The position numbers and the translations under genes were made by a program. Shown piece after piece: positions 1 to 24,111 of a stretch of DNA of 35,111 bases. Source of the stretch: Nitrospirae bacterium CG1_02_44_142 (GTDB lineage: Bacteria > Nitrospirota > Thermodesulfovibrionia > Thermodesulfovibrionales > UBA1546); assembly GCA_001871685.1 (NCBI GenBank), contig MNVK01000010.1, forward strand, positions 1 through 35,111. Reading direction: 5' to 3'. Numbering within the stretch: position 1 is the stretch's first letter; the number at the start of each line of letters is the position of its first letter. The notes beneath the pieces were generated by a model, which made no database searches, had not been told where the DNA came from, and saw nothing but the letters and a program-made list of their open reading frames with translations.

Positions 1-66
1 CGCTGCCTCGCAGCCTGCGTGTCCCGCGCCGATAACAATTACGTCATAATCACGGTCTTTAAACAT
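1..66 (-). CDS. mnmG: MnmG/GidA tRNA U34 modification enzyme, first 22 codons only (gene runs off the left edge)
   Basis: Not in the ORF track because it is open at the window edge. The reverse complement of 1-66 translates to MFKDRDYDVIVIGAGHAGCEAA. This is the FAD-binding DVIVIGxGHAGxEAA N-terminus typical of MnmG. Confidence 0.7.
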   Translation of the reverse strand, partial: MFKDRDYDVIVIGAGHAGCEAA

Positions 67-162
67 GATTTATTATACCTTATCGGGTTGGTATGAGAAC
101 TTGAAGGGCAAGGCGATATTTATGTGGGGAAGTTTGTTGATAGAGACACTTTAAAATACATC

Positions 163-1491
163 TCAAATTTTCTCTAAATCTAAAACCCAATCAATTTCAA
201 TTATTCCACCGCGACCATTTCTATCAAATCTCATATAACGATTTTTGATTTTGTAGCCCCACTTGTTGGTTATTTTAAAACCATTCCGTTCTGCGATTTC
301 AGTCAAGAAGTCAGCAGTATTAAAGGGAATGTTGCTTACTGAACTGTCGCCGACTACCATTATATAATGCCTGCCTTTGTCTAAGCATTTTGATATTTCT
401 GCAAAGTGATTTTCCATGCCAACAAAATATTTGAATGTAATGTAGGCATGTTTATGCCCATTTTTCTTGTCTATTTTAAATACCCTTTGAATTTTGTCGT
501 CCAGTTTTTTAATTCCTATGATTGTTTCAAATGGCGTATATTCTACAAACTCTTTTTTATAAAAATGTTTTGTCCCTATGTATTCTTTTTTCTTCTCATT
601 CTGTTTTGGCTGTGTTTGAATGCCAAATAAATCTCCAATCCAAAACAACTCAACCATCTGATTATAAATATAATCTATAGCCTTGATATAGGGTGGCGAA
701 GTAATTGCCAAATCTATATTTTGTCCTTTCAGTTTTACTTTTAACGAGTCTGTACTTGATGAACAAATAATCCGATTTCTAAGTTTAGGTTTAATGTTTT
801 CAGAGAACTTTGTAATTCGCTCCTTGAACAAATCAAGTTGTGAAAGAAAAAGACTTAATGGTTCTTCGGGAGCCTTAATGTGAGTGTGTGAAACATAAGT
901 TTTTTGCGACTCATTATCTGCATAAGAAACACGCCGTATTATAGATGAAAAACATATAATTAAAAGATGCTGAATATCCTTAATGCTTTTATTATCGCCA
1001 AATCTTTCAGGTATCTGATTAATGAGAGTCCGTATTATTGAAAGCTTATTTATTGTTTCTTTAGGAAACCAATGTTCAATCGTTTCGCATTCTGGTTTAA
1101 ACTCTCCTCTTTTTTTCTTTTTAATTCCTTTCACAAGCCAGTCTGAAACTTTGTTTAGCTCTGAGATATTAACAGCTGTGGTTTTGACTTTCGCGATTAG
1201 GCATGATAAAGGATCTATGTCAATGCCGATTACATTATGTCCCACTAAAATTCCTTCTACTAAAGTTGTTCCTGAACCACAGAAGGGATCTAAGATAGTT
1301 TTACTTTTTTGCCTTGATAAATACTTATTGATTGCCCATTTTGGAATATGTGGAATGAATTTAGCCGGATATTTATGAAAACCGTGTGTGTGAGCTGTTA
1401 CATTATTAGTAAATATATTTAAAATTGAGCCTTGCTCGATTTCATCTGGTATAAATTCCTTAACAATCAAATAATCCTGCGATTTAATCAT
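163..1491 (-). CDS. DNA amino-methyltransferase (N4-cytosine or N6-adenine), R-M associated
   Basis: 442-aa ORF. SAM motif I is DPFCGSGTTLVEG and catalytic motif IV is ITSPPY, in the order I -> long variable region -> IV. SPPY is more typical of N4C enzymes than DPPY/NPPY. It shows block similarity to the MTase at 18378-19988 (HGFHxYPAxFIP, FCGSGTTLVE, LIAKVKTT, ITSPPY). It overlaps the upstream MTase gene by 4 nt. Confidence 0.85.
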   Translation of the reverse strand: MIKSQDYLIVKEFIPDEIEQGSILNIFTNNVTAHTHGFHKYPAKFIPHIPKWAINKYLSRQKSKTILDPFCGSGTTLVEGILVGHNVIGIDIDPLSCLIAKVKTTAVNISELNKVSDWLVKGIKKKKRGEFKPECETIEHWFPKETINKLSIIRTLINQIPERFGDNKSIKDIQHLLIICFSSIIRRVSYADNESQKTYVSHTHIKAPEEPLSLFLSQLDLFKERITKFSENIKPKLRNRIICSSSTDSLKVKLKGQNIDLAITSPPYIKAIDYIYNQMVELFWIGDLFGIQTQPKQNEKKKEYIGTKHFYKKEFVEYTPFETIIGIKKLDDKIQRVFKIDKKNGHKHAYITFKYFVGMENHFAEISKCLDKGRHYIMVVGDSSVSNIPFNTADFLTEIAERNGFKITNKWGYKIKNRYMRFDRNGRGGIIEIDWVLDLEKI

Positions 1492-2924
1492 CTTTCAAGT
1501 AAAACAATACTTTCTCTTAAGTAATTTTTCAGATATTCTAATCCCTGTTTTTGTTGAGAGCTTGTAGTTAAATGTCTTGTTACAAAGATGCTTTTCACTT
1601 TAAAGCCTATTTCTCTTGCAATTTCAGCAATTAAACTATCTGTTGGAATAATTACACCTGAATAAGCAGAATTGCCCACAACAATTCCTATATAGCCATT
1701 TTTAGTTGTTTGTCTGTAAAGCTTATTTAAAAGAGTGTACATATCATCAAAATAGCCTCTTACGACATTCGGAATATTATTATTCCAAAGCTTTTGAGGC
1801 TCAAAAAGGCTTATAAGATTCTCAAGATATTCATTTCTATAAATTATTAATTTATGATTTAACGAATTTGTATTTGAACGAAAACCAGTGTTTCGCAATT
1901 TTCTGAATTCTTCTTTTTCAGAAACAAACTCTCCAAGCCAAAGCTCAATCTTATGTATCTCAAAATAGTCAAAACAGTTACAGTAAGGAGGCGAAAAGAA
2001 TGTTAATTCAATTTCATCTGAGAAATACTTATCGAACTCTAAGCAGCTACCCTTGTAAATGTTTGGTTTTTTATCACATTTGCCATAATTAAATTTCAAG
2101 TCAGATAGAATCATTTCAAGACGATTAGAAAAATTAGTTTTTACAAAGCTGAATTTGTTATCAGGAAATTTTTCATTTTCCCATCTTTCTTTCTCAATGT
2201 TTATATAACCATTAGGCGTTCTCTTGCGATTTTTGTATTTAATTCCGTTGCCTTCTTTCTTAATGTTTGAAACATCTTCAATGATTGAAAGCCATGCAAC
2301 AAAGAGTACCATTTTTGTTTTTTCATGCTGAATAGCTTTTATATGTTGTTTAAATTGAAGAAGCGCCTGTAAAATTTCTTGATTAAATACTTTTTCAGCT
2401 AAATCAAAAGAGGTCTGAAAAATCTCCTTAGATTTTTCAATGTCCTTCAACTTTTTTAATTCCACTTCAACTTGAATTACGTCCTTTGAAGCATATTGCT
2501 CATTTTCAACTTTGGCAACTAAGACTGAAATAGGGTTTACATCAATTCCAAATGAATTTAAATCAGCTATGCGAGAAGCCAGAAGGGTAGTTCCACTACC
2601 TGAGAATGGGTCAAAAGTATTTCCTTTGATTTTCAACTCTTTGATAAAAGCATTTACAAGTTTTAGAGAGTAACCTTCACGATAGGGAAACCATCTTTGG
2701 ACTGGTGTTTGGTTAGCAAGTTGAAAATGTACTTGATTTCTGAAAGACTCGCCATTATAAAACTGGAGAGACTGTTCGAGCTTATTAAATATTTTTATCT
2801 GCTTTGCTTGTGAATTTTCTAATTCGGCCTCAAAAAGGTTGTAATTTAATGTTGGTTCAGCAACTATGCTGACTACTTCAAATTCGTCAAATGATGTTTT
2901 ATATGCTAATTCGGTATGTCCCAT
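1488..2924 (-). CDS. Second DNA amino-methyltransferase (N4C/N6A class)
   Basis: 478-aa ORF. Motif I is DPFSGSGTTLLAS and motif IV is FFSPPYCNCFDY, with about 200 aa between them. It is divergent from the neighbouring MTase, so it is not a recent duplicate. It is co-oriented and overlapping with that gene. Confidence 0.85.
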   Translation of the reverse strand: MGHTELAYKTSFDEFEVVSIVAEPTLNYNLFEAELENSQAKQIKIFNKLEQSLQFYNGESFRNQVHFQLANQTPVQRWFPYREGYSLKLVNAFIKELKIKGNTFDPFSGSGTTLLASRIADLNSFGIDVNPISVLVAKVENEQYASKDVIQVEVELKKLKDIEKSKEIFQTSFDLAEKVFNQEILQALLQFKQHIKAIQHEKTKMVLFVAWLSIIEDVSNIKKEGNGIKYKNRKRTPNGYINIEKERWENEKFPDNKFSFVKTNFSNRLEMILSDLKFNYGKCDKKPNIYKGSCLEFDKYFSDEIELTFFSPPYCNCFDYFEIHKIELWLGEFVSEKEEFRKLRNTGFRSNTNSLNHKLIIYRNEYLENLISLFEPQKLWNNNIPNVVRGYFDDMYTLLNKLYRQTTKNGYIGIVVGNSAYSGVIIPTDSLIAEIAREIGFKVKSIFVTRHLTTSSQQKQGLEYLKNYLRESIVLLER

Positions 2925-2935
2925 TTTATGTTGTT

Positions 2936-4213
2936 TTAGCCCTTAAATCTGTTACTCCTGTGATACTGAATAAATTCGACTAATGGCAACCTCCTATCCA
3001 TTCTATTCTTGATTTGAATGTTTGCGCTTGAAATTATGGCGGTTTTGAGATTCTGGTTCGGTATATCATTAAATCTTGCTGATGTAATGATTTTATGAGT
3101 ATCAGTAAGTGAGAAATAACCTTTGTCAAAAGCAATATGACAATGCCTGCATAAACATAATCCATTTAAGATATGTGCCCTATGTGGAATATTGCTATCT
3201 TGTGCATTATCAGGCTTAATGTGCGCTGCCTCAACAAAGATTTGTCCTATAACATCACAATTCGGGACAGCACATATGTAATTATATTTCTTTTTTATTC
3301 TTATAGACCATGCCGCATTCCTTATCCTTCGCGTGCTTTGTGAAAACCTCAAATCACTACTTAAAATGTCAATCTCTGGTATCTGAATTTCTTCCTGTTC
3401 TGCAACGGCATCAACTAATGGCGCTGTGAAAATTTCATCGGTAATTTGTTCTTCTATATTTTGTTCTTGTGTTATCGCTTCAAAAATAGAACGAATTGAG
3501 TCTTTGAATGGTGAAATTTCAATTAGTGGATTTTCTCTTATTGATTGCCAGTCTACACCGGTTAGAAATGGACTTGGCTCGAAACTCTTAATCTCTTGAA
3601 TAAAATCTGAATACTTACCTGTATAAAATAATCTTCCTTGTACCTCTTGAAACAGACCTGAATTTATAAGATCTCTTTTCCAGTATGATGCGTTGTCTCC
3701 TACTCTTTGAGTATTGCCGTCAACTAATGCTTCAAATTCTCTAATAGAAATAGAATTCTGAGTATCAAGAATATTTAACAAGAACCTCAAAGGCATTTCA
3801 CCATTTGCCGGATTTATGCTGTATTGAACCTGTGTATTATTGAAAGCATAAATAGCAAGTGAAATTGTTAGAGTTAATTCATAAACTTTTTGGGCTGCAC
3901 CGTAATTACCCACTGTGTAAAGGTCATTCCAAAGACTACCCATTCTTGTCCAGATAAGCGGGCATTGAGTACCATCTTTAATAAAGCCGTAACGAATCAT
4001 TGCACGAATTTTAGTTTGCATTGTAGATGGCTGAATATCGGCGGCGGCTGCAAATTTATACATTTTTTGGTTTCCGCTCCTACCACCAGACCAGCTAAAC
4101 CCAATATATTCAGGTTTTTGACTTTCAAGAACCAATGTTCTGACTGTCAATAATTCTTCAAGATTCGAACTGCTTCTTGAATGAAACCAGTCTCCATTAA
4201 TAGATGCCATCAT
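2936..4213 (-). CDS. HNH-family endonuclease with a large N-terminal domain; putative restriction endonuclease
   Basis: 425-aa ORF. The C-terminal region CAVPNCDVIGQIFVEAAHIKPD...NGLCLCRHCHIAFDKGYFSL matches the HNH (HNH_2-like) pattern C..C..AAHI.P...NGl.L....H..FD.G. The roughly 290-aa N-terminal domain has no catalytic motif I recognise. The segment STMQTKIRAMIRYGFIKDG...WTRMG faintly recalls the recognition domain of AlwI/BstNBI-type enzymes, but this is from memory and weak. It lies 11 nt upstream of the two MTase genes. Confidence 0.7.
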   Translation of the reverse strand: MMASINGDWFHSRSSSNLEELLTVRTLVLESQKPEYIGFSWSGGRSGNQKMYKFAAAADIQPSTMQTKIRAMIRYGFIKDGTQCPLIWTRMGSLWNDLYTVGNYGAAQKVYELTLTISLAIYAFNNTQVQYSINPANGEMPLRFLLNILDTQNSISIREFEALVDGNTQRVGDNASYWKRDLINSGLFQEVQGRLFYTGKYSDFIQEIKSFEPSPFLTGVDWQSIRENPLIEISPFKDSIRSIFEAITQEQNIEEQITDEIFTAPLVDAVAEQEEIQIPEIDILSSDLRFSQSTRRIRNAAWSIRIKKKYNYICAVPNCDVIGQIFVEAAHIKPDNAQDSNIPHRAHILNGLCLCRHCHIAFDKGYFSLTDTHKIITSARFNDIPNQNLKTAIISSANIQIKNRMDRRLPLVEFIQYHRSNRFKG

Positions 4214-4300
4214 TTATCCTCTTCTCAATTAGCACAAGCTATTACTGATGATTATAATAGTTTTATGTCCTGCAATGCTCAAATAATAAAACCGTCACTT

Positions 4301-5404
4301 TTACTTTAACTTCTTTAATAATAGTTCAGGCTCTTTTTCTAAATATACTTCTGGCTGTCCACCAGTTCCTTGAAAAAGTACAAGAATGTGGTGTCCATCG
4401 CGGGTGCTCACAGAGTAATGAGGTTTTTCGTCTACTTTTCCATCTACATATACTTTTTGCCCTTTTGCCCCATCAGGTGATTGATAGAAAGAATCAACTT
4501 TACCATCGGTATCTGACAAATGCCTTTTCTCCGATATGACAACAAGTCCCGGCTTTTCATCTTTCATCGCTCTATAAAGATTTTCTGAAAAACCTGATTC
4601 GAGACCGTGATGAGGTGCTACCAAAATTGAGAGACCATGAGAACCAAGCAAGGATTTTAGCGATGGTTGATTTCCGGTTATTTCGTGCCACGTTGGATGT
4701 ATGGTATTTTGTCTTCTATCAAATACGGTATAACGCTTTTCAAGTCCCTTGCCCTCATCTAACAGATGGTTAAGAGTATCCGGATTTATATCGCCAGGAA
4801 TTAATAATGTGTGAAAACCATGCCTATAGAAAATTATTAGACTTGTTCCATTCCCATACTCTTGATCATTATCTGGGTAAATTTCGCCAATGACCGGAGG
4901 TCTTACATAATAGAGGCCGTATTCTATATTTGGAATAGATTTTAGTGATTCATAGCAAATGGTCTGTAGGGGTAGCTTTCTACCTTCATATATTGACTTA
5001 TATATTTCTAAATTATTTTCACTTCCCTTTGGATTATTAATTCTGTTCCAATCAATAGCCTCAGATTTTGCAGAACCAGTTGTTTTATCATGTGGGCATG
5101 TATGCAACGATGAATAAAAAGGGGAACTTTTCTGATCCGGGGTTGCCAAGCAACTGATATCTGTTATGTGGTCTGCGTGAGGATGAGAAATAATTGTCTG
5201 GGCGACTTTACATTTTTTGTATTCGTCCAAATAAGGAATAATATTTTTATTTAGAAAAGCAGACGGCTTGAAATCTTCTGAGCTTCCAAAATCATACATT
5301 ATTCCTTGGTTAAGAGCTGTGCGGATAAAAATACAAAGCCCACGCCCAACATTGAAAACCCATATATGACTTCTTTGTGATGAAACCCACGATGGAATAG
5401 CCAT
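4301..5404 (-). CDS. Stand-alone metallo-beta-lactamase-fold hydrolase, ComEC C-terminal-domain-like (putative nuclease)
   Basis: 367-aa ORF. It carries IWVFNVGRGLCIF (compare ComEC VGQGD), ISHPHADHITD (the HxHxDH metal motif), LIPGDI and VAPHHGLESG (compare ComEC HHGS). No TM segment or signal peptide is visible. A Shine-Dalgarno AAGGA sits 6 nt upstream, inside the end of the preceding gene. Confidence 0.75.
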   Translation of the reverse strand: MAIPSWVSSQRSHIWVFNVGRGLCIFIRTALNQGIMYDFGSSEDFKPSAFLNKNIIPYLDEYKKCKVAQTIISHPHADHITDISCLATPDQKSSPFYSSLHTCPHDKTTGSAKSEAIDWNRINNPKGSENNLEIYKSIYEGRKLPLQTICYESLKSIPNIEYGLYYVRPPVIGEIYPDNDQEYGNGTSLIIFYRHGFHTLLIPGDINPDTLNHLLDEGKGLEKRYTVFDRRQNTIHPTWHEITGNQPSLKSLLGSHGLSILVAPHHGLESGFSENLYRAMKDEKPGLVVISEKRHLSDTDGKVDSFYQSPDGAKGQKVYVDGKVDEKPHYSVSTRDGHHILVLFQGTGGQPEVYLEKEPELLLKKLK

Positions 5405-5406
5405 TG

Positions 5407-6030
5407 TTATCCTTTATCCTCTTCCGAAATAGTTTTTGATTTTGACTCTTGTGATTTTAAATATTTAATTACAATCACTAATTGAATACTTAAAAAAGCA
5501 AGACCACCTCCAATTACTATTAACCATTTATAACTATACGAAGCCAATACGATAAATAGTAAAACTCCAAGAAGTGTAGAATTTAAAGCTCCAATGATAT
5601 ATGCAAGCCATATTTGACTGCTTTCTCGGCTAAAATAAGGCTGTTTTTCATCTATATACATGCGGGAAGTATTTTCAAATCCAAATGGCTTTAATGCTAA
5701 AAATAGTTTTCTCTGTTCGTTTATATATCGGGAAACCCGAACATAATAAGAGCGGTTAATAAGAACAAGGTAAAACATGAATGCCCCAAGAATCAAACCA
5801 ATTATAAGAGAAATTATAATAGGCATGGTAAAATCTACTTGTAGGTTTGCTTTGAAAATGCCGAGCGCTGCACCAATAAGAACGGTATAGGCAGTAAACA
5901 TGAATTTTAAAATATCAAATATCTGAGTATCGTGATGACGCATCTGTTGAAAGCATTGATTGAAATCACGCTCAAGAAATTTTAATGCCTCTTTTTCTTG
6001 CTCTGAAATATTGTGTATTGCTTCATTCAT
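5407..6030 (-). CDS. Polytopic membrane protein (about 4 TM helices), unknown function
   Basis: 207-aa ORF. It has a polar N-terminal segment of about 40 aa. Four hydrophobic stretches follow: FMFTAYTVLIGAALGIF, MPIIISLIIGLILGAFMFYLVLI, IWLAYIIGALNSTLLGVLLFIVLA and WLIVIGGGLAFLSIQLVIVI. The tail is charged. Its stop codon lies 2 nt before the MBL start codon. Confidence 0.7.
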   Translation of the reverse strand: MNEAIHNISEQEKEALKFLERDFNQCFQQMRHHDTQIFDILKFMFTAYTVLIGAALGIFKANLQVDFTMPIIISLIIGLILGAFMFYLVLINRSYYVRVSRYINEQRKLFLALKPFGFENTSRMYIDEKQPYFSRESSQIWLAYIIGALNSTLLGVLLFIVLASYSYKWLIVIGGGLAFLSIQLVIVIKYLKSQESKSKTISEEDKG

Positions 6031-6078
6031 TAGGTTTTTCCTTTATACTTTATGTCAGCACTTCTTTTAATTGTCCAG

Positions 6079-6107
6079 TTTATATTGTGACACCTGAGCA
6101 TGGACAA
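6079..6107 (-). promoter_or_regulatory. Putative sigma70-type promoter for the 4-TM/MBL gene pair
   Basis: The minus strand reads TTGTCC (6107-6102), a 17-nt spacer, then TATAAA (6084-6079). This is about 49 nt upstream of the ATG at 6030. Confidence 0.45.
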
Positions 6108-6133
6108 CCATCCCGTTTTGCTTTTTCCATGTG

Positions 6134-6721
6134 TTATAGCCTCTCCATCATTTCTTCAGTGGAAAGTAGTTTCGGCCCTGAGACACCAAGTCTGACTTGC
6201 TGGCATTTTTCTCTTCTCAAAATGTCTTCAAATTTGATAGAGGCAAGATAATCTTTGTTTGCAAGTTCCTGAATTAAGTGTGCCTCAAATGGAAAGTCCA
6301 CTACCTCGTTGCCTTTATAGCTCGTAACACTAAAGAGCTTTCGCTCACCAGCTCTCAAATATGGGTATGATGGAAACGTCAGTCTAATTTTTTCCTTTTT
6401 ATCAATCACCACGTCATCAACAGCAATATTTATCGCAGTGGCGTTGCCTACATTAGCTAATTCGAACATGCGTTCTGTCTTATCAAATGATATTGTTAAA
6501 AGGGCGGTTGTAGAGACCTCTATCTGGTGCTTCATAGCAAGCTGAACTTTGTTCGTCTCGACCGTGTACCAGATGATAGCCAGCAGTGTTGCAAAAAGCA
6601 CGGAAAAGGTGAGTCTATTCTCTAACGCAATGGTCTGTGGAAGTAGGCAAAAAGAAAGAACGACGATAAGAAAGATAGCCGCTATCACGATATAGTTTTT
6701 TTTCTCACCCATAGCTTTCAA
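6134..6721 (-). CDS. Membrane-anchored protein (2 N-terminal TM helices plus a soluble domain of about 130 aa), unknown function
   Basis: 195-aa ORF. TM1 is YIVIAAIFLIVVLSFCLL and TM2 is LTFSVLFATLLAIIWYTV. The rest looks beta-rich (LANVGNATAINIAVDDVVID, KLFSVTSYKGNEVVDF). No motif recognised. Confidence 0.6.
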   Translation of the reverse strand: MKAMGEKKNYIVIAAIFLIVVLSFCLLPQTIALENRLTFSVLFATLLAIIWYTVETNKVQLAMKHQIEVSTTALLTISFDKTERMFELANVGNATAINIAVDDVVIDKKEKIRLTFPSYPYLRAGERKLFSVTSYKGNEVVDFPFEAHLIQELANKDYLASIKFEDILRREKCQQVRLGVSGPKLLSTEEMMERL

Positions 6722-6830
6722 ACCTCCTTCTTCATCCTCTCAAAATGCACGATATTATTCGGCTTGTACCTTTCCTTCCTCATCCCTTTAAACGTCTCCC
6801 TATCCGCTTTCTGATGAACAACTTTGCTTT

Positions 6831-7190
6831 CTATTCCCAAAATTCGCTCAATCCCATGCTTATTGCTATAGCCTTATCAACTTCGTTAATCTTGTATTCG
6901 GGAAGCGCTCCAACAAAATTCTCCAGTCTCTCTTTATCAATGGTATATATCTGTCCAAGATGTACAACAGATTCATGTGGCAGTCCGCTCTCTTTTGGCT
7001 TTATTAATACGCCTACCGGCAATTCAGCAACTTTGAGATTGCTTGTTATGGCAGCAACAATTGTCAAGCTCCCTACTTTATTACCTATGTCGTTTTGAAT
7101 AACAAGCGCCGGATGAGGCCCTTTCATTTCCCTGCCCTTTGAAGGACTAAAGTCAAGAAAATATATTTCACCACGTTTAGGCTGTTTCAT
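6831..7190 (-). CDS. mazF: MazF/PemK-family endoribonuclease toxin
   Basis: 119-aa ORF. The N-terminus KRGEIYFLDFSPSKGREMKGPHPALVIQND is the canonical PemK/MazF pattern. It shares an ATGA overlap with the upstream antitoxin gene. Confidence 0.85.
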   Translation of the reverse strand: MKQPKRGEIYFLDFSPSKGREMKGPHPALVIQNDIGNKVGSLTIVAAITSNLKVAELPVGVLIKPKESGLPHESVVHLGQIYTIDKERLENFVGALPEYKINEVDKAIAISMGLSEFWE

Positions 7191-7462
7191 TTTCTCTTCG
7201 TCTTTTTGCCGGTCTTATATGTTGCAGCAGACTCCGCACAGATACTCAAAAAGTCTTCTGAAAGGCGCTTATCGTCATCTGCGATTTCCTTGTAAATTCT
7301 TTCCGCTTTTTCAATAACCTGCTGCTTCTTGTAATCACTAATCATTTTTGTAATAGCCTCTCTGACAATTTCGCTTCTGTTCTTTTTTAATCCCTTTGAA
7401 ATCCTGTCTATCTCTTCAACAAGTTCTGTAGGAAAGCTTATCCCAAGTTTTGCAACCGGCAT
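7187..7462 (-). CDS. Ribbon-helix-helix (CopG-like) antitoxin partner of MazF
   Basis: 91-aa ORF. The N-terminus KLGISFPTELVEEIDRISKGLKKNRSEIVREAI has the RHH beta-strand/helix pattern. It overlaps mazF by 4 nt. Confidence 0.75.
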   Translation of the reverse strand: MPVAKLGISFPTELVEEIDRISKGLKKNRSEIVREAITKMISDYKKQQVIEKAERIYKEIADDDKRLSEDFLSICAESAATYKTGKKTKRK

Positions 7463-7476
7463 TTACACCTCCTTGA

Positions 7477-7519
7477 AATACCATATTCTTTAAATTAGAA
7501 TACCATAAGGAATACCATA
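7477..7519. promoter_or_regulatory. Three direct AATACCATA repeats upstream of the RHH-mazF operon (putative operator)
   Basis: AATACCATA occurs at 7477-7485, 7499-7507 and 7511-7519. All three lie in the 100-nt divergent intergenic region just upstream of the antitoxin start at 7462. Confidence 0.5.
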
Positions 7520-7562
7520 TTTCAACCCTCAGCGGAATATTCGTTAAGACATTATAATATCG

Positions 7563-8072
7563 TTGAATCGGAGGTGTGCTATTTCTTCAATAGTAATAGA
7601 CGGTTACAATTTAATCGGCATACAACACAAAGACCTTGAGAAGCAGAGGCAGAGGCTTGTGGAAAGGCTTGCTGAATACAGGAAAATAAAAGGGCATGAA
7701 ATCACTGTTGTATTTGACGGATGGAAAAGCGGAAGCGGTGAGGAATCCCATTCAGTTACAGGAGGAATTAAGGTAATCTATTCAAGGCTCGGAGAAAAGG
7801 CAGACGCTGTCATAAAGAGAATCGTATCGTCTGAAAAAAAACAGTGGATTGTTATAACTTCTGACAGGGAGATTGCAGACCATGCCTGGGCCAACGGCTC
7901 TGCTGCAGTCTCGTCCGAGGATTTTTCAAGTATACTTGAAAAATCCAAGAGAACATTAACCGGCGACTTTGAACCTTTAGAGGAAGAAGAATACGAATTA
8001 CACAGGAAGGGAAGTCCGAGGACGTTGTCTAAAAAAGAAAAGGCAAAAATGAGAGCGCTGAGAAAGTTGTGA
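7563..8072 (+). CDS. YacP/Rae1-like NYN-domain (PIN-like) RNase
   Basis: 169-aa ORF. It carries IVIDGYNLIG...VVFDG...KVIYS...ADAVIKR...VITSDREI, the YacP/DUF901 pattern. The start is uncertain. The track uses TTG at 7563, but a TATAAT at 7553-7558 and a GGAGG at 7570-7574 argue for a start further downstream. Confidence 0.7.
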   Translation: MNRRCAISSIVIDGYNLIGIQHKDLEKQRQRLVERLAEYRKIKGHEITVVFDGWKSGSGEESHSVTGGIKVIYSRLGEKADAVIKRIVSSEKKQWIVITSDREIADHAWANGSAAVSSEDFSSILEKSKRTLTGDFEPLEEEEYELHRKGSPRTLSKKEKAKMRALRKL

Positions 8073-8944
8073 GAAAATTATTTAATTTAAGGCCTGCTGA
8101 TACTGTGACAGCAGTATTTGTGAGCATATTGCTGCTGCTCACAATTGCATTTAACTCCGCTATTCCGAAGAGACTGCTCTTAATCTCAATATATGCTGCG
8201 CTGCTTATTTCGCAGCTTATAGTTATAAGATTCAGGGATAGGAACAGATTTTTGAGAATAACTTATGACCTGGTATTTCCGATAATATGCGTCATCATAC
8301 TCTTTGACAGTCTTGAAGGGGTGGTCCATTACGTGAATCCAAAAGACATAGACCCATTGCTTGTAAGGCTTGACTATATAATTTTCGGTAACCATCCCAC
8401 TGTCCTGCTTGAGGCGATAATGAATCCGCTGCTGACGGACATTCTGCAAACAGCGTATTCTGCATATTATTTTCTTCCTGTGGTTCTCGGCATAGCGCTG
8501 CTGAGAAATAACCAGAGAGAAGAATTTGACAAATCACTGTTTCTGATTCTTTTTTGTTTTTATCTGTCATATCTCGGCTATATAATCTGGCCTGCGCTGG
8601 GCCCGAGGTTTGCGCTTGACCATTTACAGACTCAGAGGCTTCAAGGATTTTTTATAACAGAACCGATGCAGAATCTACTGAACAGGCTTGAAGGCATAAA
8701 GCGCGATGCGTTCCCGAGCGGGCATACAGGCGTTGCGCTGACAGCGCTGTACCTTGCATACAGGTACAATAAAACCCTATTCCGAATTTATCTGCCGGTT
8801 GTAGGCCTTCTGTTATTTTCCACCGTTTACTGCCGGTATCACTATGTTGTGGATGTCATTGCAGGGGTTATTCTTGCGGCTGCGGCAATATTTTTCGGAG
8901 AGATATATTACAAATGGCAGGAGAAAAGAGAAGGCAAGGTTTGA
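8069..8944 (+). CDS. PAP2-superfamily membrane phosphatase / phosphotransferase
   Basis: 291-aa polytopic ORF. It has the PAP2 motifs PSGHTGVA and YCRYHYVVDVIAG. A GTG start overlaps the preceding stop by 4 nt. Confidence 0.75.
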   Translation: MRKLFNLRPADTVTAVFVSILLLLTIAFNSAIPKRLLLISIYAALLISQLIVIRFRDRNRFLRITYDLVFPIICVIILFDSLEGVVHYVNPKDIDPLLVRLDYIIFGNHPTVLLEAIMNPLLTDILQTAYSAYYFLPVVLGIALLRNNQREEFDKSLFLILFCFYLSYLGYIIWPALGPRFALDHLQTQRLQGFFITEPMQNLLNRLEGIKRDAFPSGHTGVALTALYLAYRYNKTLFRIYLPVVGLLLFSTVYCRYHYVVDVIAGVILAAAAIFFGEIYYKWQEKREGKV

Positions 8945-9009
8945 TTAAAAAGCGCTTCTGTTGACAACGAAAGATTGTAAACGATATTCTAAAGAGGCTT
9001 GGTGATTAT

Positions 9010-9603
9010 ATGGCGCAGGAAATAATAGAAAACCTCATAAGCGAACTTACAAAACTCCCGGGGATAGGAAGAAAGACCGCCCAGAGGCTTGCCTTTTTCA
9101 TACTTACGCTGCCTGAAGAAAGCGCAAAAGACATAGCCAAAGCTATTAATGATGTAAAGGAGAAGGCAAGGTTCTGCAGCAGGTGCTTTAACATTACGGA
9201 CACGGAGTTGTGCAGTATATGCAGGGACGAGTCAAGAGACAGAACAAAGATATGCATTGTGGAGGAGCCGAGCAACATCATGGTCGTTGAAAGGGCCAAG
9301 GCATTTAACGGACTTTATCATGTCCTTCTCGGTTCAATCTCGCCCATAGACGGGATGACCCCTGACAGGCTAAAGATAGCCGAGCTTGTGGAAAGGGTGA
9401 GAGGGGACAGTGTAGCAGAGGTAATCCTTGCAACGAATCCCAATACAAGAGGAGAGATGACAGCCCAGTATATTAAAGACGCCCTGAAACACTTCGGCGT
9501 AAAAGTCACACGCATTGCATACGGCCTTCCAATAGGAAGCGACATTGAATTTGCGGACGAGGTAACTTTAAGCAAGGCTCTTGAAGGAAGAAGGGAGATG
9601 TAA
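9010..9603 (+). CDS. recR: Recombination protein RecR
   Basis: 197 aa. It has the HhH segment LTKLPGIGRKTAQRLAFFIL, the zinc finger CSRCFNITDTELCSIC and a Toprim-like C-terminal part. Confidence 0.95.
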   Translation: MAQEIIENLISELTKLPGIGRKTAQRLAFFILTLPEESAKDIAKAINDVKEKARFCSRCFNITDTELCSICRDESRDRTKICIVEEPSNIMVVERAKAFNGLYHVLLGSISPIDGMTPDRLKIAELVERVRGDSVAEVILATNPNTRGEMTAQYIKDALKHFGVKVTRIAYGLPIGSDIEFADEVTLSKALEGRREM

Positions 9604-9604
9604 A

Positions 9605-10024
9605 ATGCCTATGAAGAATAAAATCCGAATTATTTTCTGGAATATGCTTGCTGCCATTGCACTTTCTGCCTGTATGCCCGCGATGTCTGTGCGTGTGGAA
9701 TTTGATGACAGCATCAACAAGTATAATAAGTTTTTGTCTTCGCAGAGTTTTGATGCAGCCGGTTTTTTTGCCTCGGAGAGCATTGCAAAGGAATTCAGCA
9801 CAAGGGTGAAAGCGGCGAAGAATATTAAAGTGATAGACCGCCGCATTGTGAGGGTAAGATATGATGAGGAGAACGTCACCGCTCAGGTTGAAGTAGAGAT
9901 AGACTACTATTCCCTTTCTTCATACAGAATGAAGACCCTGCTGGACATTCAGAAGTGGGCGTATGTGACTGAAAGCGGTTTTAAACACTGGAGGCTGATG
10001 AGCCTGTTGCCTGAATTCCCTTAG
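9605..10024 (+). CDS. Small lipoprotein, unknown function
   Basis: The track ORF starts at TTG 9581. The ATG at 9605 follows an AAGGGAG ribosome-binding site. The product MPMKNKIRIIFWNMLAAIALSAC has a signal peptide with lipobox LSAC. Confidence 0.6.
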   Translation: MPMKNKIRIIFWNMLAAIALSACMPAMSVRVEFDDSINKYNKFLSSQSFDAAGFFASESIAKEFSTRVKAAKNIKVIDRRIVRVRYDEENVTAQVEVEIDYYSLSSYRMKTLLDIQKWAYVTESGFKHWRLMSLLPEFP

Positions 10025-10043
10025 TCAAGAAGTTCCGGGCAGG

Positions 10044-11363
10044 TTATTTAATCTTGCATCTCCACTCTCTTGCCTTTGCCATTATCTCCTCTTCTTCAGC
10101 AGTTGAGAGCCTGCCTTTATCAACTACGAGCTTGCCGTTAACAAATACTGTCTCTACATCCGAGGCCCGCGCTGAATAGACGATGTGCGAATAAACATCA
10201 TACAGAGGCGTAAGATGAGGCTTGTCTAAGTTCATTATCGCGATGTCCGCTGCTTTGCCTTTTTCAAGGCTGCCAGTAATGCCTCCAAGTCCAAGAGCAT
10301 CTGCGCCCCATCTTGTCGCCATGAGCAGCGCTGTCTTTGCATTTAGAGCAGTAGGGTCATTTGAGGCCGCCTTATGCACCTTCGCTGCAGTTGACATCTC
10401 GCTCAGGATATTTAGGTCATTATTGCTTGCGGCGCCGTCTGTTCCGAGAGTTACCTTTACACCTGCCTTAAGCATCTCAGGCACAGGCGCAATGCCCGAA
10501 CTCAATTTAAGATTGCTCTCTATGCAGTGAGAGACTCCGACTTTGTGTTTTGCAATCGCCTCTATATCTTTTTTATCCACCCAGACGCAGTGGGCTGCAA
10601 TAATGTTCTCATCAAGAAGGCCGATTTTTTTTAGATGCTCAACAGGGGTTAAGCCGTATTTTCCCTTTATCTCTTCAACCTCCCGCTTTGTCTCTGAAAG
10701 ATGCGTGTGAATCATGACATTGTATTTATCAGCAAGTTCCTTTACTTTTTTGAGAGTCTCAGGGCTGCATGCGTAAGCTGAATGAGGCGCAATGCACGGG
10801 ACAATCAAATCATCGCCTTGCCATTCTTTTATAAATCTTTCCGCCCGGCTTAAATATTCATCCACCGAATTGCCTGCGACTGTGGGGAAGTCAACTATCC
10901 CTGCGCCAAGGACAGCCCTCATGCCGATTTTTTTAGCAGCCTTGCTTGAGGCGTCCTCAAAAAAATACATATCGTTGTATGTTGTAATCCCAGCCTTAAG
11001 CATCTCAAGGCAGGCAAGCTCTGTTGCGTCGGATACAAATTCAGGGCTGAGCCACTTATTCTCGGCAGGCCAGATATGCTCTTCAAGCCATTCCTTTAAA
11101 GGCAGGTCGTCTGCCATGCCCCTGAAATAGACCATTGCCGCATGGGTGTGTGTGTTTATTAGTCCGGGCAGCACTGCCGTGTTTTTGCCGTTGATTATAT
11201 TTTTTGAGGAATACTTTTTTGCTATTTCATCAAGGCTTCCTATGTCTGCAATTTTATTCGCCTGAATAGCAAGAGCGCCGTTCCTAATGACAGTAAAGTC
11301 ATGGTTCATTGTGATGATATAATCAGCGTGAATAATATAGTCAGCGTTTTGCAAACGATTCAC
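10044..11363 (-). CDS. mtaD: Amidohydrolase; 5-methylthioadenosine/S-adenosylhomocysteine deaminase-like
   Basis: 439 aa. It carries GLINTHTHAAMVYFRGMADDLPLKEWL and downstream HxH/D metal ligands typical of the MtaD/SsnA amidohydrolase subgroup. Confidence 0.8.
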   Translation of the reverse strand: MNRLQNADYIIHADYIITMNHDFTVIRNGALAIQANKIADIGSLDEIAKKYSSKNIINGKNTAVLPGLINTHTHAAMVYFRGMADDLPLKEWLEEHIWPAENKWLSPEFVSDATELACLEMLKAGITTYNDMYFFEDASSKAAKKIGMRAVLGAGIVDFPTVAGNSVDEYLSRAERFIKEWQGDDLIVPCIAPHSAYACSPETLKKVKELADKYNVMIHTHLSETKREVEEIKGKYGLTPVEHLKKIGLLDENIIAAHCVWVDKKDIEAIAKHKVGVSHCIESNLKLSSGIAPVPEMLKAGVKVTLGTDGAASNNDLNILSEMSTAAKVHKAASNDPTALNAKTALLMATRWGADALGLGGITGSLEKGKAADIAIMNLDKPHLTPLYDVYSHIVYSARASDVETVFVNGKLVVDKGRLSTAEEEEIMAKAREWRCKIK

Positions 11364-11392
11364 CTATTTACCAATTCACCCATTCACCATAC

Positions 11393-12994
11393 TTATTTCT
11401 TTATCTCAATCCTCGGGAAAAGGTGTTCTGCTTTAGAGACTTTTATTTCGTAAGACGGTTTCCAGTCCCATTCAAAAATTTCAGGGCTGCAATGTTTTGC
11501 CTCATCAACCAAAGATTTCAAGCCAATCTGCTTCCATATCTTCTCTGCTGTGCCAGGCATGAAAGGATAAAGCGAGAGCGCTGTGATTCGCAAGGCATTC
11601 CAGATATTGAACATAACAATTTTCAATTGATCCGTATTCTCCTTTGCGAGTTTCCACGGCTCTTTCCTTGCGATATAATTATTCGCCTCTCCGATTATAT
11701 CCCAGATATTTTCAAGCATCAGACTGAAGCGCAGATGGTCCCAATATTCTTTTCTGTATATATTCATATATGCATAAGCGCACTGCTCTTCAAGCTCTCT
11801 TGATGCGCCTGCATCTATGCGCCCGATATCAATTGCTCCTCCAAAATATTTTTCTGCCATTGTACTGAATCTGCTTACGAGGTTGCCGAGGTCATTTGCG
11901 AGGTCTGTGTTTATCCTGTTAATGAGCGCCTGTTCTGAAAAAACTCCGTCAAGTCCGAAAGACACCTCGCGGAACATGAAATACCGCAGGGCGTCCACAC
12001 CGTATTTTTCGACCATGGCATTGGGGTCAACCATGTTACCGAGGGACTTTGACATCTTCTTCCCGTTAACTGTCCACCAGCCGTGCGCAAAGATATTTTT
12101 TGGAAGAGGAAGGTTTAAGGCCATTAGCATTGTGGACCAATAAACCGCATGTGTGGTAAGAATATCCTTTCCCACAAGGTGGTGTTCGGCAGGCCACCAG
12201 TCTACCCCCCCTTCGCTCCCCCCCTTACCAAGGGGGGGAATAGGGGGGGTGCTGTCAGCTCCAGGTGCAAGATATTTTGTTGCCGAAAAATAGTTTACCA
12301 GGGCGTCAAACCAGACATAGGTGACGAAGTTTTCATCAAACGGCAGTGGAATTCCCCATGAAAGCCTGCTTTTGGGCCTTGAGATGCAGAGGTCTCCGAG
12401 AGTGTTGTTTCTCAGAAACCCGAGAACCTCATTTCTCCTTGTGTCCGGGAGTATGTAGGAGGGGTTCTCTTCTATATATTTGATGAGCCTTTCCTGATAT
12501 TTTGACATGAGGAAAAAATAGTTCTCTTCGTGTATCCGGTCCACAGGCCGGCCGCAGTCGGGACAGTTGCCTTCCACTATGTCCTTTTCAGTCCAGAAGC
12601 GTTCATCAGGAGTGCAGTACCAGCCGGAGTATTCCCTTTTTTCAATCTCTCCCCTGTCCCGGAGCATCTGAAGAAGTCCCTGTACACTCTTGATGTGCGC
12701 ATCGTCGGTTGTCCTGATAAATGCGTCATTGGATATGTTCAGCCTTTTCCAGAGATTGCTGAAATTGTCCACCAGGATGTCTGCATGTTCCTTCGGGGTG
12801 CGCCCTTTTTCAGCGGCTGCCTTCTCCACCTTCTGGCCGTGCTCGTCAGTGCCTGTCAAAAAGAAAACTTCTTTCCCTCTCAGTCTGTTGTATCGCGCAA
12901 GAATATCAGCCGCAATGGTTGTGTATGCGTGGCCTATGTGAGGGATATCATTGACATAGTAGATTGGAGTTGTAACGTAGAATCTCTGTTTCAT
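11393..12994 (-). CDS. metG: Methionyl-tRNA synthetase (short form)
   Basis: 533 aa. It has the HIGH motif (PHIGHAYT), KMSKS, and the zinc knuckle CPDCGRPV. It contains an in-frame palindromic repeat insertion, listed as the repeat feature at 12205-12249. Confidence 0.95.
   Translation of the reverse strand: MKQRFYVTTPIYYVNDIPHIGHAYTTIAADILARYNRLRGKEVFFLTGTDEHGQKVEKAAAEKGRTPKEHADILVDNFSNLWKRLNISNDAFIRTTDDAHIKSVQGLLQMLRDRGEIEKREYSGWYCTPDERFWTEKDIVEGNCPDCGRPVDRIHEENYFFLMSKYQERLIKYIEENPSYILPDTRRNEVLGFLRNNTLGDLCISRPKSRLSWGIPLPFDENFVTYVWFDALVNYFSATKYLAPGADSTPPIPPLGKGGSEGGVDWWPAEHHLVGKDILTTHAVYWSTMLMALNLPLPKNIFAHGWWTVNGKKMSKSLGNMVDPNAMVEKYGVDALRYFMFREVSFGLDGVFSEQALINRINTDLANDLGNLVSRFSTMAEKYFGGAIDIGRIDAGASRELEEQCAYAYMNIYRKEYWDHLRFSLMLENIWDIIGEANNYIARKEPWKLAKENTDQLKIVMFNIWNALRITALSLYPFMPGTAEKIWKQIGLKSLVDEAKHCSPEIFEWDWKPSYEIKVSKAEHLFPRIEIKK
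12205..12249. repeat. 45-nt nested G/C-run palindrome inside metG
   Basis: The plus strand reads C7-TTCGCT-C7-TTACCAA-G7-AATA-G7. At 45 nt (15 codons) it stays in frame and is translated as TPPIPPLGKGGSEGG. Elements of the same architecture occur at 29007-29049 and 34057-34084. Confidence 0.85.
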
Positions 12995-23036: not shown

Positions 23037-23123
23037 TGGTGCCGAAGGCGGGATTTGAACCCGCACAGCCTTTCGACCACTAGACCCTGAACCTAGCGCG
23101 TCTGCCAGTTCCGCCACTTCGGC
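23037..23123 (-). tRNA. tRNA-Leu (anticodon CAG)
   Basis: The 87-nt minus-strand sequence runs GCCGAAGTGGCGGAACTGGCAGACGCGCTAGGTTCAGGGTCTAG...GCGGGTTCAAATCCCGCCTTCGGCACCA. It has a 7-bp acceptor stem, anticodon loop UUCAGGG, a long variable arm, a T-arm GCGGG/CCCGC and an encoded CCA. Confidence 0.9.
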
Positions 23124-24013: not shown

Positions 24014-24111
24014 TGGCGGGAGCGTGTGGGAATCGAACCCACCCTTCCGGTTTGTGGCCGGAAACACCGGCTTTGAAGGCCGGGAGGGACACCAGAACCC
24101 TATGCACTCCC
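24014..24111 (-). tRNA. selC: tRNA-Sec (selenocysteine, anticodon UCA)
   Basis: The 98-nt minus-strand sequence runs GGGAGTGCATAGGGTTCTGGTGTCCCTCCCGGCCTTCAAAGCCGGTGTTTCCGGCCACAAACCGGAAGGGTGGGTTCGATTCCCACACGCTCCCGCCA. The anticodon stem CCGGC/GCCGG carries loop CUUCAAA. It has a long extra arm (TTCCGG/CCGGAA), a T-arm GTGGG/CCCAC and a G73-CCA end. Confidence 0.85.

Follow-up and report, generated by a model that had tools for sequence, protein, structure and literature searches.

A mobile gene pair for a small membrane protein and a ComEC-like metallo-beta-lactamase in a Nitrospirota genome: a candidate defence cassette related to PDC-M48

Introduction

Gene cassettes that lie within BREX, DISARM or Type I restriction-modification (R-M) systems have been collected as "phage defence candidates" (PDCs) on the principle of guilt by embedding, and one of them, PDC-M48, is listed in the supplement as CAS_00157 (FAM_01875>>FAM_00178), with 63 in the table's first column (Payne et al. 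2024). FAM_00178 is also present in further cassettes of lower count in the same supplement. In addition, nucleases of the ComEC-like metallo-beta-lactamase (MBL) type are effectors in Hachiman (HamM), Avs, Lamassu and DRT variants, where they are protease-activated (PMC12799240). Here we analyzed a 35,111-nucleotide stretch of DNA from Nitrospirae bacterium CG1_02_44_142 (contig MNVK01000010.1, positions 1-35,111, assembly GCA_001871685.1; the whole stretch is referred to as the window), which carries a pair of genes for a small transmembrane (TM) protein, a member of what we call family 1, and a ComEC-like MBL. The two open reading frames (ORFs) are as follows.

5407-6030, minus strand: gene for the family-1 TM protein, 207 amino acids (ORF)
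4301-5404, minus strand: gene for the MBL, 367 amino acids (ORF)

In the ORF list, the stop codon of the TM gene (5409-5407) and the ATG of the MBL gene (5404-5402) are separated by a gap of 2 nucleotides. ORF coordinates, hydropathy and structural modeling all agree with a preliminary description of this DNA as a four-TM protein gene and an MBL gene set 2 nucleotides apart; that both genes are real, and that they are translationally coupled on the minus strand, is confirmed. Judged by its sequence, the pair appears to be a divergent variant of PDC-M48 with a different, unrecognized family of membrane protein.

Comparison with described systems

The pair resembles PDC-M48 in being a two-gene cassette in which a small protein with three or four TM helices is followed by a ComEC-like MBL of about 300-360 residues; in the adjacency, common orientation and 2-nucleotide spacing of its genes, an arrangement kept across loci; and in the position of several relatives (L003, L005, L008, L044 and L053; related loci are given such labels throughout) between hsd genes. 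However, the window's copy lies beside a Type II-like system and not within a multi-gene system, and between its TM protein and PDC-M48A no similarity could be detected (PADLOC models gave no match at E <= 0.01, and hhalign gave <1%). The MBL also differs in having about 100 extra residues, and its match to PDC-M48B (E = 2.2e-13) was limited to the first part, with residues 10-90 only aligned. The connection between the two is provided by distant relatives from Helicobacteraceae (L037) and Polaribacter (L039). Their MBLs, which are 30-32% identical to that of the window and were recovered with its alignment, match PDC-M48B across the full length, and their membrane partners, here named family c5, are true PDC-M48A proteins matching that model over the full length (E = 7e-48 and 2e-66, respectively). 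At 28-32% identity, the window's MBL is clearly homologous to MBLs that have PDC-M48A as partner. The architecture is therefore already catalogued, since the c5 partner family is PDC-M48A, and the preliminary description, which could not match the pair to any named defence system, is to be corrected: PDC-M48 has the same small TM plus MBL architecture. Since none of the PDC-M48A models recognized the TM gene in the model scan, a PADLOC run would not be expected to report the pair of the window.

ComEC/Rec2 is the best match of the MBL domain by both sequence and structure (9ic4), and the HxHxDH, GD and HHG motifs as well as a C-terminal (R/T)-(T/R)-D-x-G motif are shared. In contrast to ComEC, the window's MBL is a stand-alone cytoplasmic protein found in an R-M context and not among competence genes, neither of the two window proteins contains a Competence or OB/DUF4131 domain (Pfam), and the partner is a four-helix protein unrelated to the ComEC channel. 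The possibility of a split ComEC was rejected on the basis of the missing Competence and OB domains and the R-M context. As for the MBL pro-nucleases of Hachiman, Avs, Lamassu and DRT variants, the window's MBL weakly matches the PADLOC models LmuA (1e-5) and RTasMBL (2e-5), and models of these types are matched better by a second MBL, MBL2, that is encoded in relatives. The window's system differs from these pro-nucleases in having a membrane protein as partner, and activation by proteolysis is not indicated. The genes of the island that contains the pair (described below) encode no protease domain, a trypsin-like protease partner is absent, and no protease adjoins the related loci except for a LexA-type S24 repressor in L002. 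This repressor (Peptidase_S24 + LexA_DNA_bind) and a 384-amino-acid MBL (PDC-M48B, 2e-34) are encoded at L002 771-2591 and precede a five-gene block that includes the pair, which hints at SOS-linked regulation in that version.

Two further systems combine a small polytopic membrane protein with another component. Kiwa consists of KwaA, a four-TM protein, and KwaB, which is not an MBL. Its likeness to the window's pair, raised in the preliminary description together with a possible role as membrane sensor or anchor plus nuclease effector, is in outline only, a small polytopic membrane protein beside a soluble DNA-directed protein, and represents an analogy and not homology; neither protein gave a PADLOC match to Kiwa (the presence of Kiwa models in that library version being unconfirmed), and the TM protein had no fold match in PDB. 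In type VI-B CRISPR-Cas13b, the membrane accessory protein Csx27 is likewise small and polytopic and has a nuclease as its partner. Weak matches to the PADLOC Csx27 model were observed for c3, the partner family of the intermediate MBL clades (L034 11112-11765, nearly full length, E = 5e-5), and for c5/PDC-M48A (L037 5329-5829, near full length, E = 7e-3). However, the c3 match does not concern the window's partner family, and no Cas genes are present.

The MBL enzyme

The MBL carries the motifs VGRG, HPHADH, PGD and PHHG, and residues H74, H76, D78, H79, D205 and H265 were invariant across 77 MBL homologues. With regard to superfamily, both the HxHxDH motif and the downstream His, Asp and His metal ligands of metallo-beta-lactamases are present, and the alpha-beta/beta-alpha fold was confirmed by a very confident structural model (pLDDT 93.3, pTM 0.93) and by Foldseek. 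Scores for Pfam Lactamase_B_2 and Lactamase_B were just below the gathering thresholds (22.3 vs 27 and 21 vs 22.7, respectively), and the NCBIfam ComEC models were matched partially, at 31 bits against cut-offs of 190 and 969. When a profile of the 77 homologues was used, the ComEC beta-lactamase-like domain 9ic4 was the best PDB sequence match (E = 8e-5). The same structure was ranked first by Foldseek (E = 1e-8, TM-score 0.70 on target), with Pce (the phosphorylcholine esterase of pneumococcus), CPSF73 and RNase J as the next hits. These values show that the ComEC likeness noted in the preliminary description is real but remote. Because the ComEC domain tops the sequence, profile and fold comparisons, we designate the enzyme as ComEC-type. 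The sequence contains no hydrophobic or TM segment and no signal peptide, and it has insertions of roughly 100 residues relative to the minimal ComEC domain. The protein is thus a catalytically intact, stand-alone phosphodiesterase of the ComEC-type MBL kind, located in the cytoplasm, and most probably a nuclease.

The membrane protein

Four hydrophobic segments were detected in the family-1 protein by a hydropathy scan (residues 37-55, 61-79, 139-157 and 167-185), and its AlphaFold model (pLDDT 81.5) has four long helices (10-60, 68-112, 138-161 and 168-204). Lysine and arginine residues cluster in the N-terminal 36 residues, in the 80-138 loop and in the C-terminal tail. Based on this distribution and the positive-inside rule, an N-in/C-in inner-membrane topology is predicted, with the N-terminus, the large loop between helices 2 and 3 and the C-terminus in the cytoplasm, and nearly all conserved non-membrane sequence is predicted to lie on the cytoplasmic side. 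Searches of Pfam and NCBIfam gave nothing above the curated cut-offs (two sub-threshold matches, to FecCD with 16.9 bits and to a family of tandem five-TM proteins with 16.2 bits), and comparison of the model with PDB by Foldseek gave no fold match, the best E value (0.67, ClyA) not being meaningful. The family has 182 homologues in 90% clusters and is rare, with 381 clusters at 50% identity in 1.84 billion representatives.

In at least six of the 50% clusters, a HAD-type phosphatase domain of about 125 amino acids with a DLDGT...DDR motif is fused N-terminally to family-1 TM proteins; examples are L012 2803-3852 and the proteins P0314, P0319, P0320, P0331, P0374 and P0336. A family-1 protein with an Acid_phosphat_B-type domain at its C-terminus is encoded at L015 8760-10004. 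The presence of HAD fusions at either end of family-1 proteins fits cytoplasmic termini and ties the module to phosphate-ester chemistry.

Conservation of the pairing

Related loci were obtained from a scan of one genome per species (43 loci), and further loci were added by exact-protein look-up. Homologues of both proteins span many phyla of Bacteria and Archaea, named sources including Thermodesulfobacteriota, Nitrospirota, Planctomycetes, Aminicenantes, Margulisiibacteriota, Methanofastidiosum and Methanosarcina. The pairing was counted in loci that leave room to judge and that encode an MBL with about 50% identity or more to that of the window; in 19 of these 21, the family-1 TM gene adjoins the MBL gene in the same orientation. 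The association that had first been described at a single locus is thus a conserved one, and family-1 TM protein and MBL form a genuine unit that is almost always co-encoded. The order of the two genes is reversed in L012, L018, L023 and L055. Pairwise identities of the TM proteins and MBLs co-vary (Spearman 0.69 over 189 non-independent pairs), and the MBL is more conserved than its partner (for example, 81% vs 52% identity in L003).

In more distant MBL clades (28-51% identity), the adjoining protein also has three or four TM helices and belongs to other families, c3, c5 and c13. When family 1 was compared with each of the three by hhalign, the probability was below 1% (0.2% for c5); between c3 and c5 a weak relationship was seen (58%). 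In many relatives the gene directly beside the pair encodes the MBL2 mentioned above, a second MBL paralogue that is shorter (about 264-287 amino acids) and has intact metal ligands, and its homology to the long MBL had a probability of 99.9% in hhalign. The window has no MBL2 gene. In L023 (9995-11890) the long MBL and MBL2 are fused in one 631-amino-acid protein, a "Rosetta-stone" fusion which links the two functionally.

Genomic neighborhoods of related loci

R-M and other defence genes dominate the surroundings of the pair in the window's clade. In L003, L005, L008 and L010, hsdS and hsdR of a Type I R-M system are on either side of the module. The gene order is hsdM-hsdS-TIR-TM-MBL-MBL2-hsdR in L044 and hsdR-SLFN-PDDEXK-TM-MBL-hsdS-GIY-YIG-AbiEi-AbiEii-hsdM in L053, and in L006 and L007 the module directly follows hsdR-hsdM-hsdS. 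Restriction systems of Type II, IIG or IV were found as well: in the window, L001 and L002 the pair is followed by an HNH_2 nuclease and two N6/N4 methyltransferases (MTases); in L004 its flanking genes encode an Eco57I-type methylase, a BsuBI/PstI nuclease and a further methylase; in L012 it comes after an MmeI-type enzyme; and in L037, of the PDC-M48-type clade, after an EcoRI-type methylase and a GmrSD-HNH gene. The module of L055 has genes for an E2/ThiF/JAB protein, a TaqI-like methylase and HNH_2 in its vicinity, L049 is in a conjugative-type segment after a TIR gene, and in L051 the module is followed by DUF4145 and then an IS1595 transposase. Based on such association, the pair is a credible and good defence candidate. 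The defence neighborhood seen in the preliminary description is a property of the window's clade that does not extend to all relatives: one subclade is located next to ribonucleotide reductase (RNR), and distant clades have housekeeping surroundings.

Some of the neighbors are recurrent in type. Stand-alone TIR_2 proteins of 154-157 amino acids are encoded upstream of the TM gene in two loci unrelated to each other, directly in L044 (6900-7364) and one small opposite-strand ORF away in L049 (6045-6518), and HEPN/DUF4145 proteins flank the pair in L003 (2980-3720) and L051 (9178-9834). They could represent optional additions to the module or genes that are embedded there independently.

Island structure and mobility

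Within the window, the pair and its R-M neighbors occupy a segment that differs between strains.

About 100-6776, no strand assigned: strain-variable island, absent from 99.9% identical contigs; low GC content
2936-4213, minus strand: HNH_2 endonuclease (Pfam HNH_2, 8e-10; PADLOC HNH / Type II REase)
1488-2924 and 163-1491, minus strand: two N6/N4 DNA methyltransferases (PADLOC MTase_II, 1e-82 and 2e-73)

Two alleles of the site were observed in contigs of the same organism, with flanks 99.9% identical to the window. The occupied allele (L060, L061 and L063-L068) has the order mazF-(192 aa)-TM-MBL-HNH-MTase-MTase-mnmG, as in the window, and the empty allele (L059 and L062, 140-758) has 619 bp with a 76-amino-acid SEC-C gene between mnmG (gidA) and mazF. 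The limits of this 6.7-kb island, about 100 and 6776, follow from the fact that the empty-site contigs L059 and L062 align to the flanks only (window 1-99 and 6769-12603). GC content is 0.31-0.40 across positions 1-8000 vs 0.42-0.49 further on. The preliminary description had placed the pair in an AT-rich island between an R-M module and a MazF toxin-antitoxin pair; the R-M genes and low GC were supported, but the MazF pair lies outside the island according to the empty-site allele. MazEF (MazF/RHH, 6831-7462) was accordingly rejected as a part of the island and belongs to the core flank. A search of the island ends for flanking repeats, either inverted repeats or target-site duplications, gave none of 9 or more nucleotides, and no tRNA gene is located at the island, the tRNAs of the window being only at about 23-24 kb. 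The lack of junction repeats and of a tRNA at the site is consistent with exchange of the island by recombination in the flanking core genes.

Comparison with other contigs showed which genes travel together. Window positions 1716-6119 (4404 bp) are 100% identical to L001, a contig binned as Elusimicrobia CG1_02_37_114, reflecting either a very recent transfer or a binning or assembly artefact; upstream of 6119 the two differ, L001 1-886 being unrelated to window 6120-6776. The five-gene block of the window (168-5999) has 87.6% nucleotide identity to L002, a Nitrospirae contig in which the HNH_2 endonuclease has a 93% identical copy at the same position. These comparisons indicate that the TM-MBL-HNH-MTase-MTase block travels as a unit with a variable upstream region. 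The HNH_2 nuclease and the two methyltransferases are a co-travelling R-M context and not the core of the pair, and the pair itself moves as a unit between phyla.

Proposed mechanism and alternative explanations

Our preferred interpretation, to which we assign a probability of about 0.5, is that the pair is a self-contained mobile cassette of the defence-island type: on the inner side of the inner membrane, the MBL would be tethered or gated by the TM protein and would degrade foreign DNA. The conserved cytoplasmic parts of the TM protein (N-terminal helix, arginine-rich loop between helices 2 and 3, and C-terminal tail) would hold and/or gate the MBL phosphodiesterase, and the membrane-held enzyme would cut entering foreign DNA, or another phosphodiester substrate, as a phage or plasmid enters the cell. 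Such an action might complement the neighboring R-M system. In relatives with MBL2, this protein would probably hetero-oligomerize with the long MBL, and the window's version would work without it. If the pair does protect against phages or plasmids, the class of small membrane protein plus ComEC-like MBL, which is now only a PADLOC candidate, would have a validated mechanism, and current models would be missing a subfamily with another membrane partner in Nitrospirota, Thermodesulfobacteriota, Omnitrophota, Planctomycetota, Methanosarcina and others. That one conserved enzyme is combined with membrane partners unrelated to each other is relevant to the question of how soluble nucleases are coupled to membranes in immunity. 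Besides, the empty and occupied alleles in one natural population, together with the 4.4-kb cassette shared at 100% identity by two contexts, provide exact boundaries for cloning.

A more specific and tentative form of this idea, which we consider rather unlikely as it stands, is that the pair mirrors the competence machinery for the purpose of defence: small membrane proteins, exchangeable for one another, would station a nuclease derived from ComEC at the cytoplasmic surface of the membrane, and phage or plasmid DNA coming out of the entry channel would be destroyed there, independently of its sequence or methylation. The HAD phosphatase and the second MBL would then process the resulting ends or nucleotides. 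If true, such a nuclease defence, coupled to the site of entry and backing up R-M, would be new in its mechanism.

Several observations weigh against a tethered defence nuclease. Identity to ComEC, the basis for regarding the enzyme as a nuclease, is about 14%, and the next structural neighbors include a phosphorylcholine esterase. PDC-M48 was not among the systems validated by Payne et al. (2024), and literature searches, including those on MBL plus transmembrane defence pairs, gave no functional study. No homologues were found in PLSDB plasmids or INPHARED phages, and IMG/VR had two homologues only, both distant. With regard to genomic context, the module is located directly downstream of a class II (B12-dependent) RNR gene on the same strand in four loci, three from Acidobacteriota and one from Sedimentisphaerales (L023 6039-12508; L026 5698-11068, with overlapping genes; L032 6602-11886; L034 6190-12706), and in L011 it is found among accA/accD. 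A Pfam scan of 91 neighbors in the remaining, mostly distant-clade loci revealed assorted housekeeping genes with few defence families and no conserved partner. Finally, 2 of the 21 loci assessed for pairing were exceptions: in L045 the partner is a 160-amino-acid protein with a single TM helix, and in L047 there is a patatin and no polytopic partner.

The MBL of L047 (8001-12351), which shares 67% identity with that of the window, lacks a TM partner. After its gene comes one for a patatin-like phospholipase and, about 2 kb beyond, one for a second MBL, of 370 amino acids.

Partners of this kind bring up a different possibility, namely abortive infection with the roles reversed, in which the membrane partner would kill the cell by pore formation or depolarization and the MBL would act as sensor or activator, for instance through the processing of a cue made of nucleic acid or of a nucleotide. 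We regard this as unlikely, and it is the strongest of the competing explanations. It would account for the observation that the membrane partner is swapped among at least three unrelated families while the MBL is constant, as well as for the patatin phospholipase and the one-TM protein found in its place in one locus each. In CBASS, Pycsar and Thoeris, membrane effectors are typically exchanged in this way, and the weak resemblance of the c3 family to Csx27 points in the same direction. However, sensors usually diverge faster, whereas here the MBL evolves more slowly than its partner; the TM proteins have no recognizable ligand-binding domain; and the known defence MBLs of ComEC-like type are effectors. 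The patatin was seen in one locus only, where it may represent an independent neighbor.

Somewhat less likely still is a role outside defence, as a mobile membrane-associated phosphodiester module for salvage of DNA or nucleotides or for turnover of lipid head groups. The RNR genes directly upstream of four modules, the recurrent fusions of HAD phosphatases to the TM protein, Metallophos genes near the modules of L049 and L055, the second rank of Pce among structural neighbors and the housekeeping surroundings in distant clades would all fit such a function. On the other hand, it is difficult to reconcile with a patchy cross-phylum distribution at very high identity, with presence that varies among strains of one species and with repeated insertion between hsdS and hsdR. 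The family is also rare, and no conserved metabolic neighbor was found beyond the RNR subclade. If the pair does not act in defence, its links to RNR and HAD phosphatases would point to an unrecognized membrane-associated nucleotide or phosphodiester pathway.

An addiction module of the toxin-antitoxin (TA) kind, in which the MBL would be the toxin and the membrane protein a sequestering antidote that together stabilize the island or its R-M genes, appears improbable. Tight translational coupling with the smaller gene first, a location on a gain-and-loss island beside R-M genes, and the frequency of TA modules as neighbors are in agreement with it, but the gene order flips in the four loci listed above, the proteins (367 and 207 amino acids) are large for a type II TA pair, and no Pfam TA family was detected, PADLOC matches being limited to MBL models. 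Moreover, a TA function overlaps with abortive-infection defence rather than excluding it. That the pair represents accessory subunits of the adjoining HNH/methyltransferase system, as its one-strand arrangement with short intergenic gaps and the conservation of the five-gene block (87.6% nucleotide identity in L002, 100% in L001) could suggest, is effectively excluded because its contexts are so varied, including unrelated Type I, IIG, BsuBI/PstI and GmrSD systems and loci without any R-M genes.

Other features of the window

Upstream of the pair, two additional features were considered.

6079-6107, minus strand: candidate sigma-70-like promoter, TTGTCC-17-TATAAA, read from the sequence upstream of the pair
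6134-6721, minus strand: 195-amino-acid protein with two N-terminal TM helices and a beta-rich C-terminal part, within the island

A dedicated promoter had been proposed for the pair. The motif itself is present (at 6107-6079) and lies within the 1716-6119 stretch that is 100% identical to L001, but support for its function was not obtained: 32 promoter-like sites were found in the region vs 27.9 expected from shuffles, and the site at 6079-6107 was not listed by the scan. Since promoter-like sites are as frequent in shuffled sequence, the candidate carries no weight as evidence.

The 6134-6721 gene had been considered as a possible partner of the pair. It was rejected as a third component, because the encoded protein has no homologue in the 43 related loci and a relative occurs in an island without the pair. 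Its family is very rare (12 clusters), and the 79% identical relative is located at the edge of another R-M-like island (L069/L070) that contains SLFN, an N6_N4 MTase, a ResIII helicase and, next to the relative, a dCMP-deaminase-like gene, but neither a TM nor an MBL gene. The 195-amino-acid protein may be an independent single-gene passenger of the island.

Further along the window, and unconnected with the pair, genes for tRNA-Leu(CAG) and for a selenocysteine tRNA are located on the minus strand at 23037-23123 and 24014-24111, respectively; from the presence of the latter it follows that the host uses selenoproteins.

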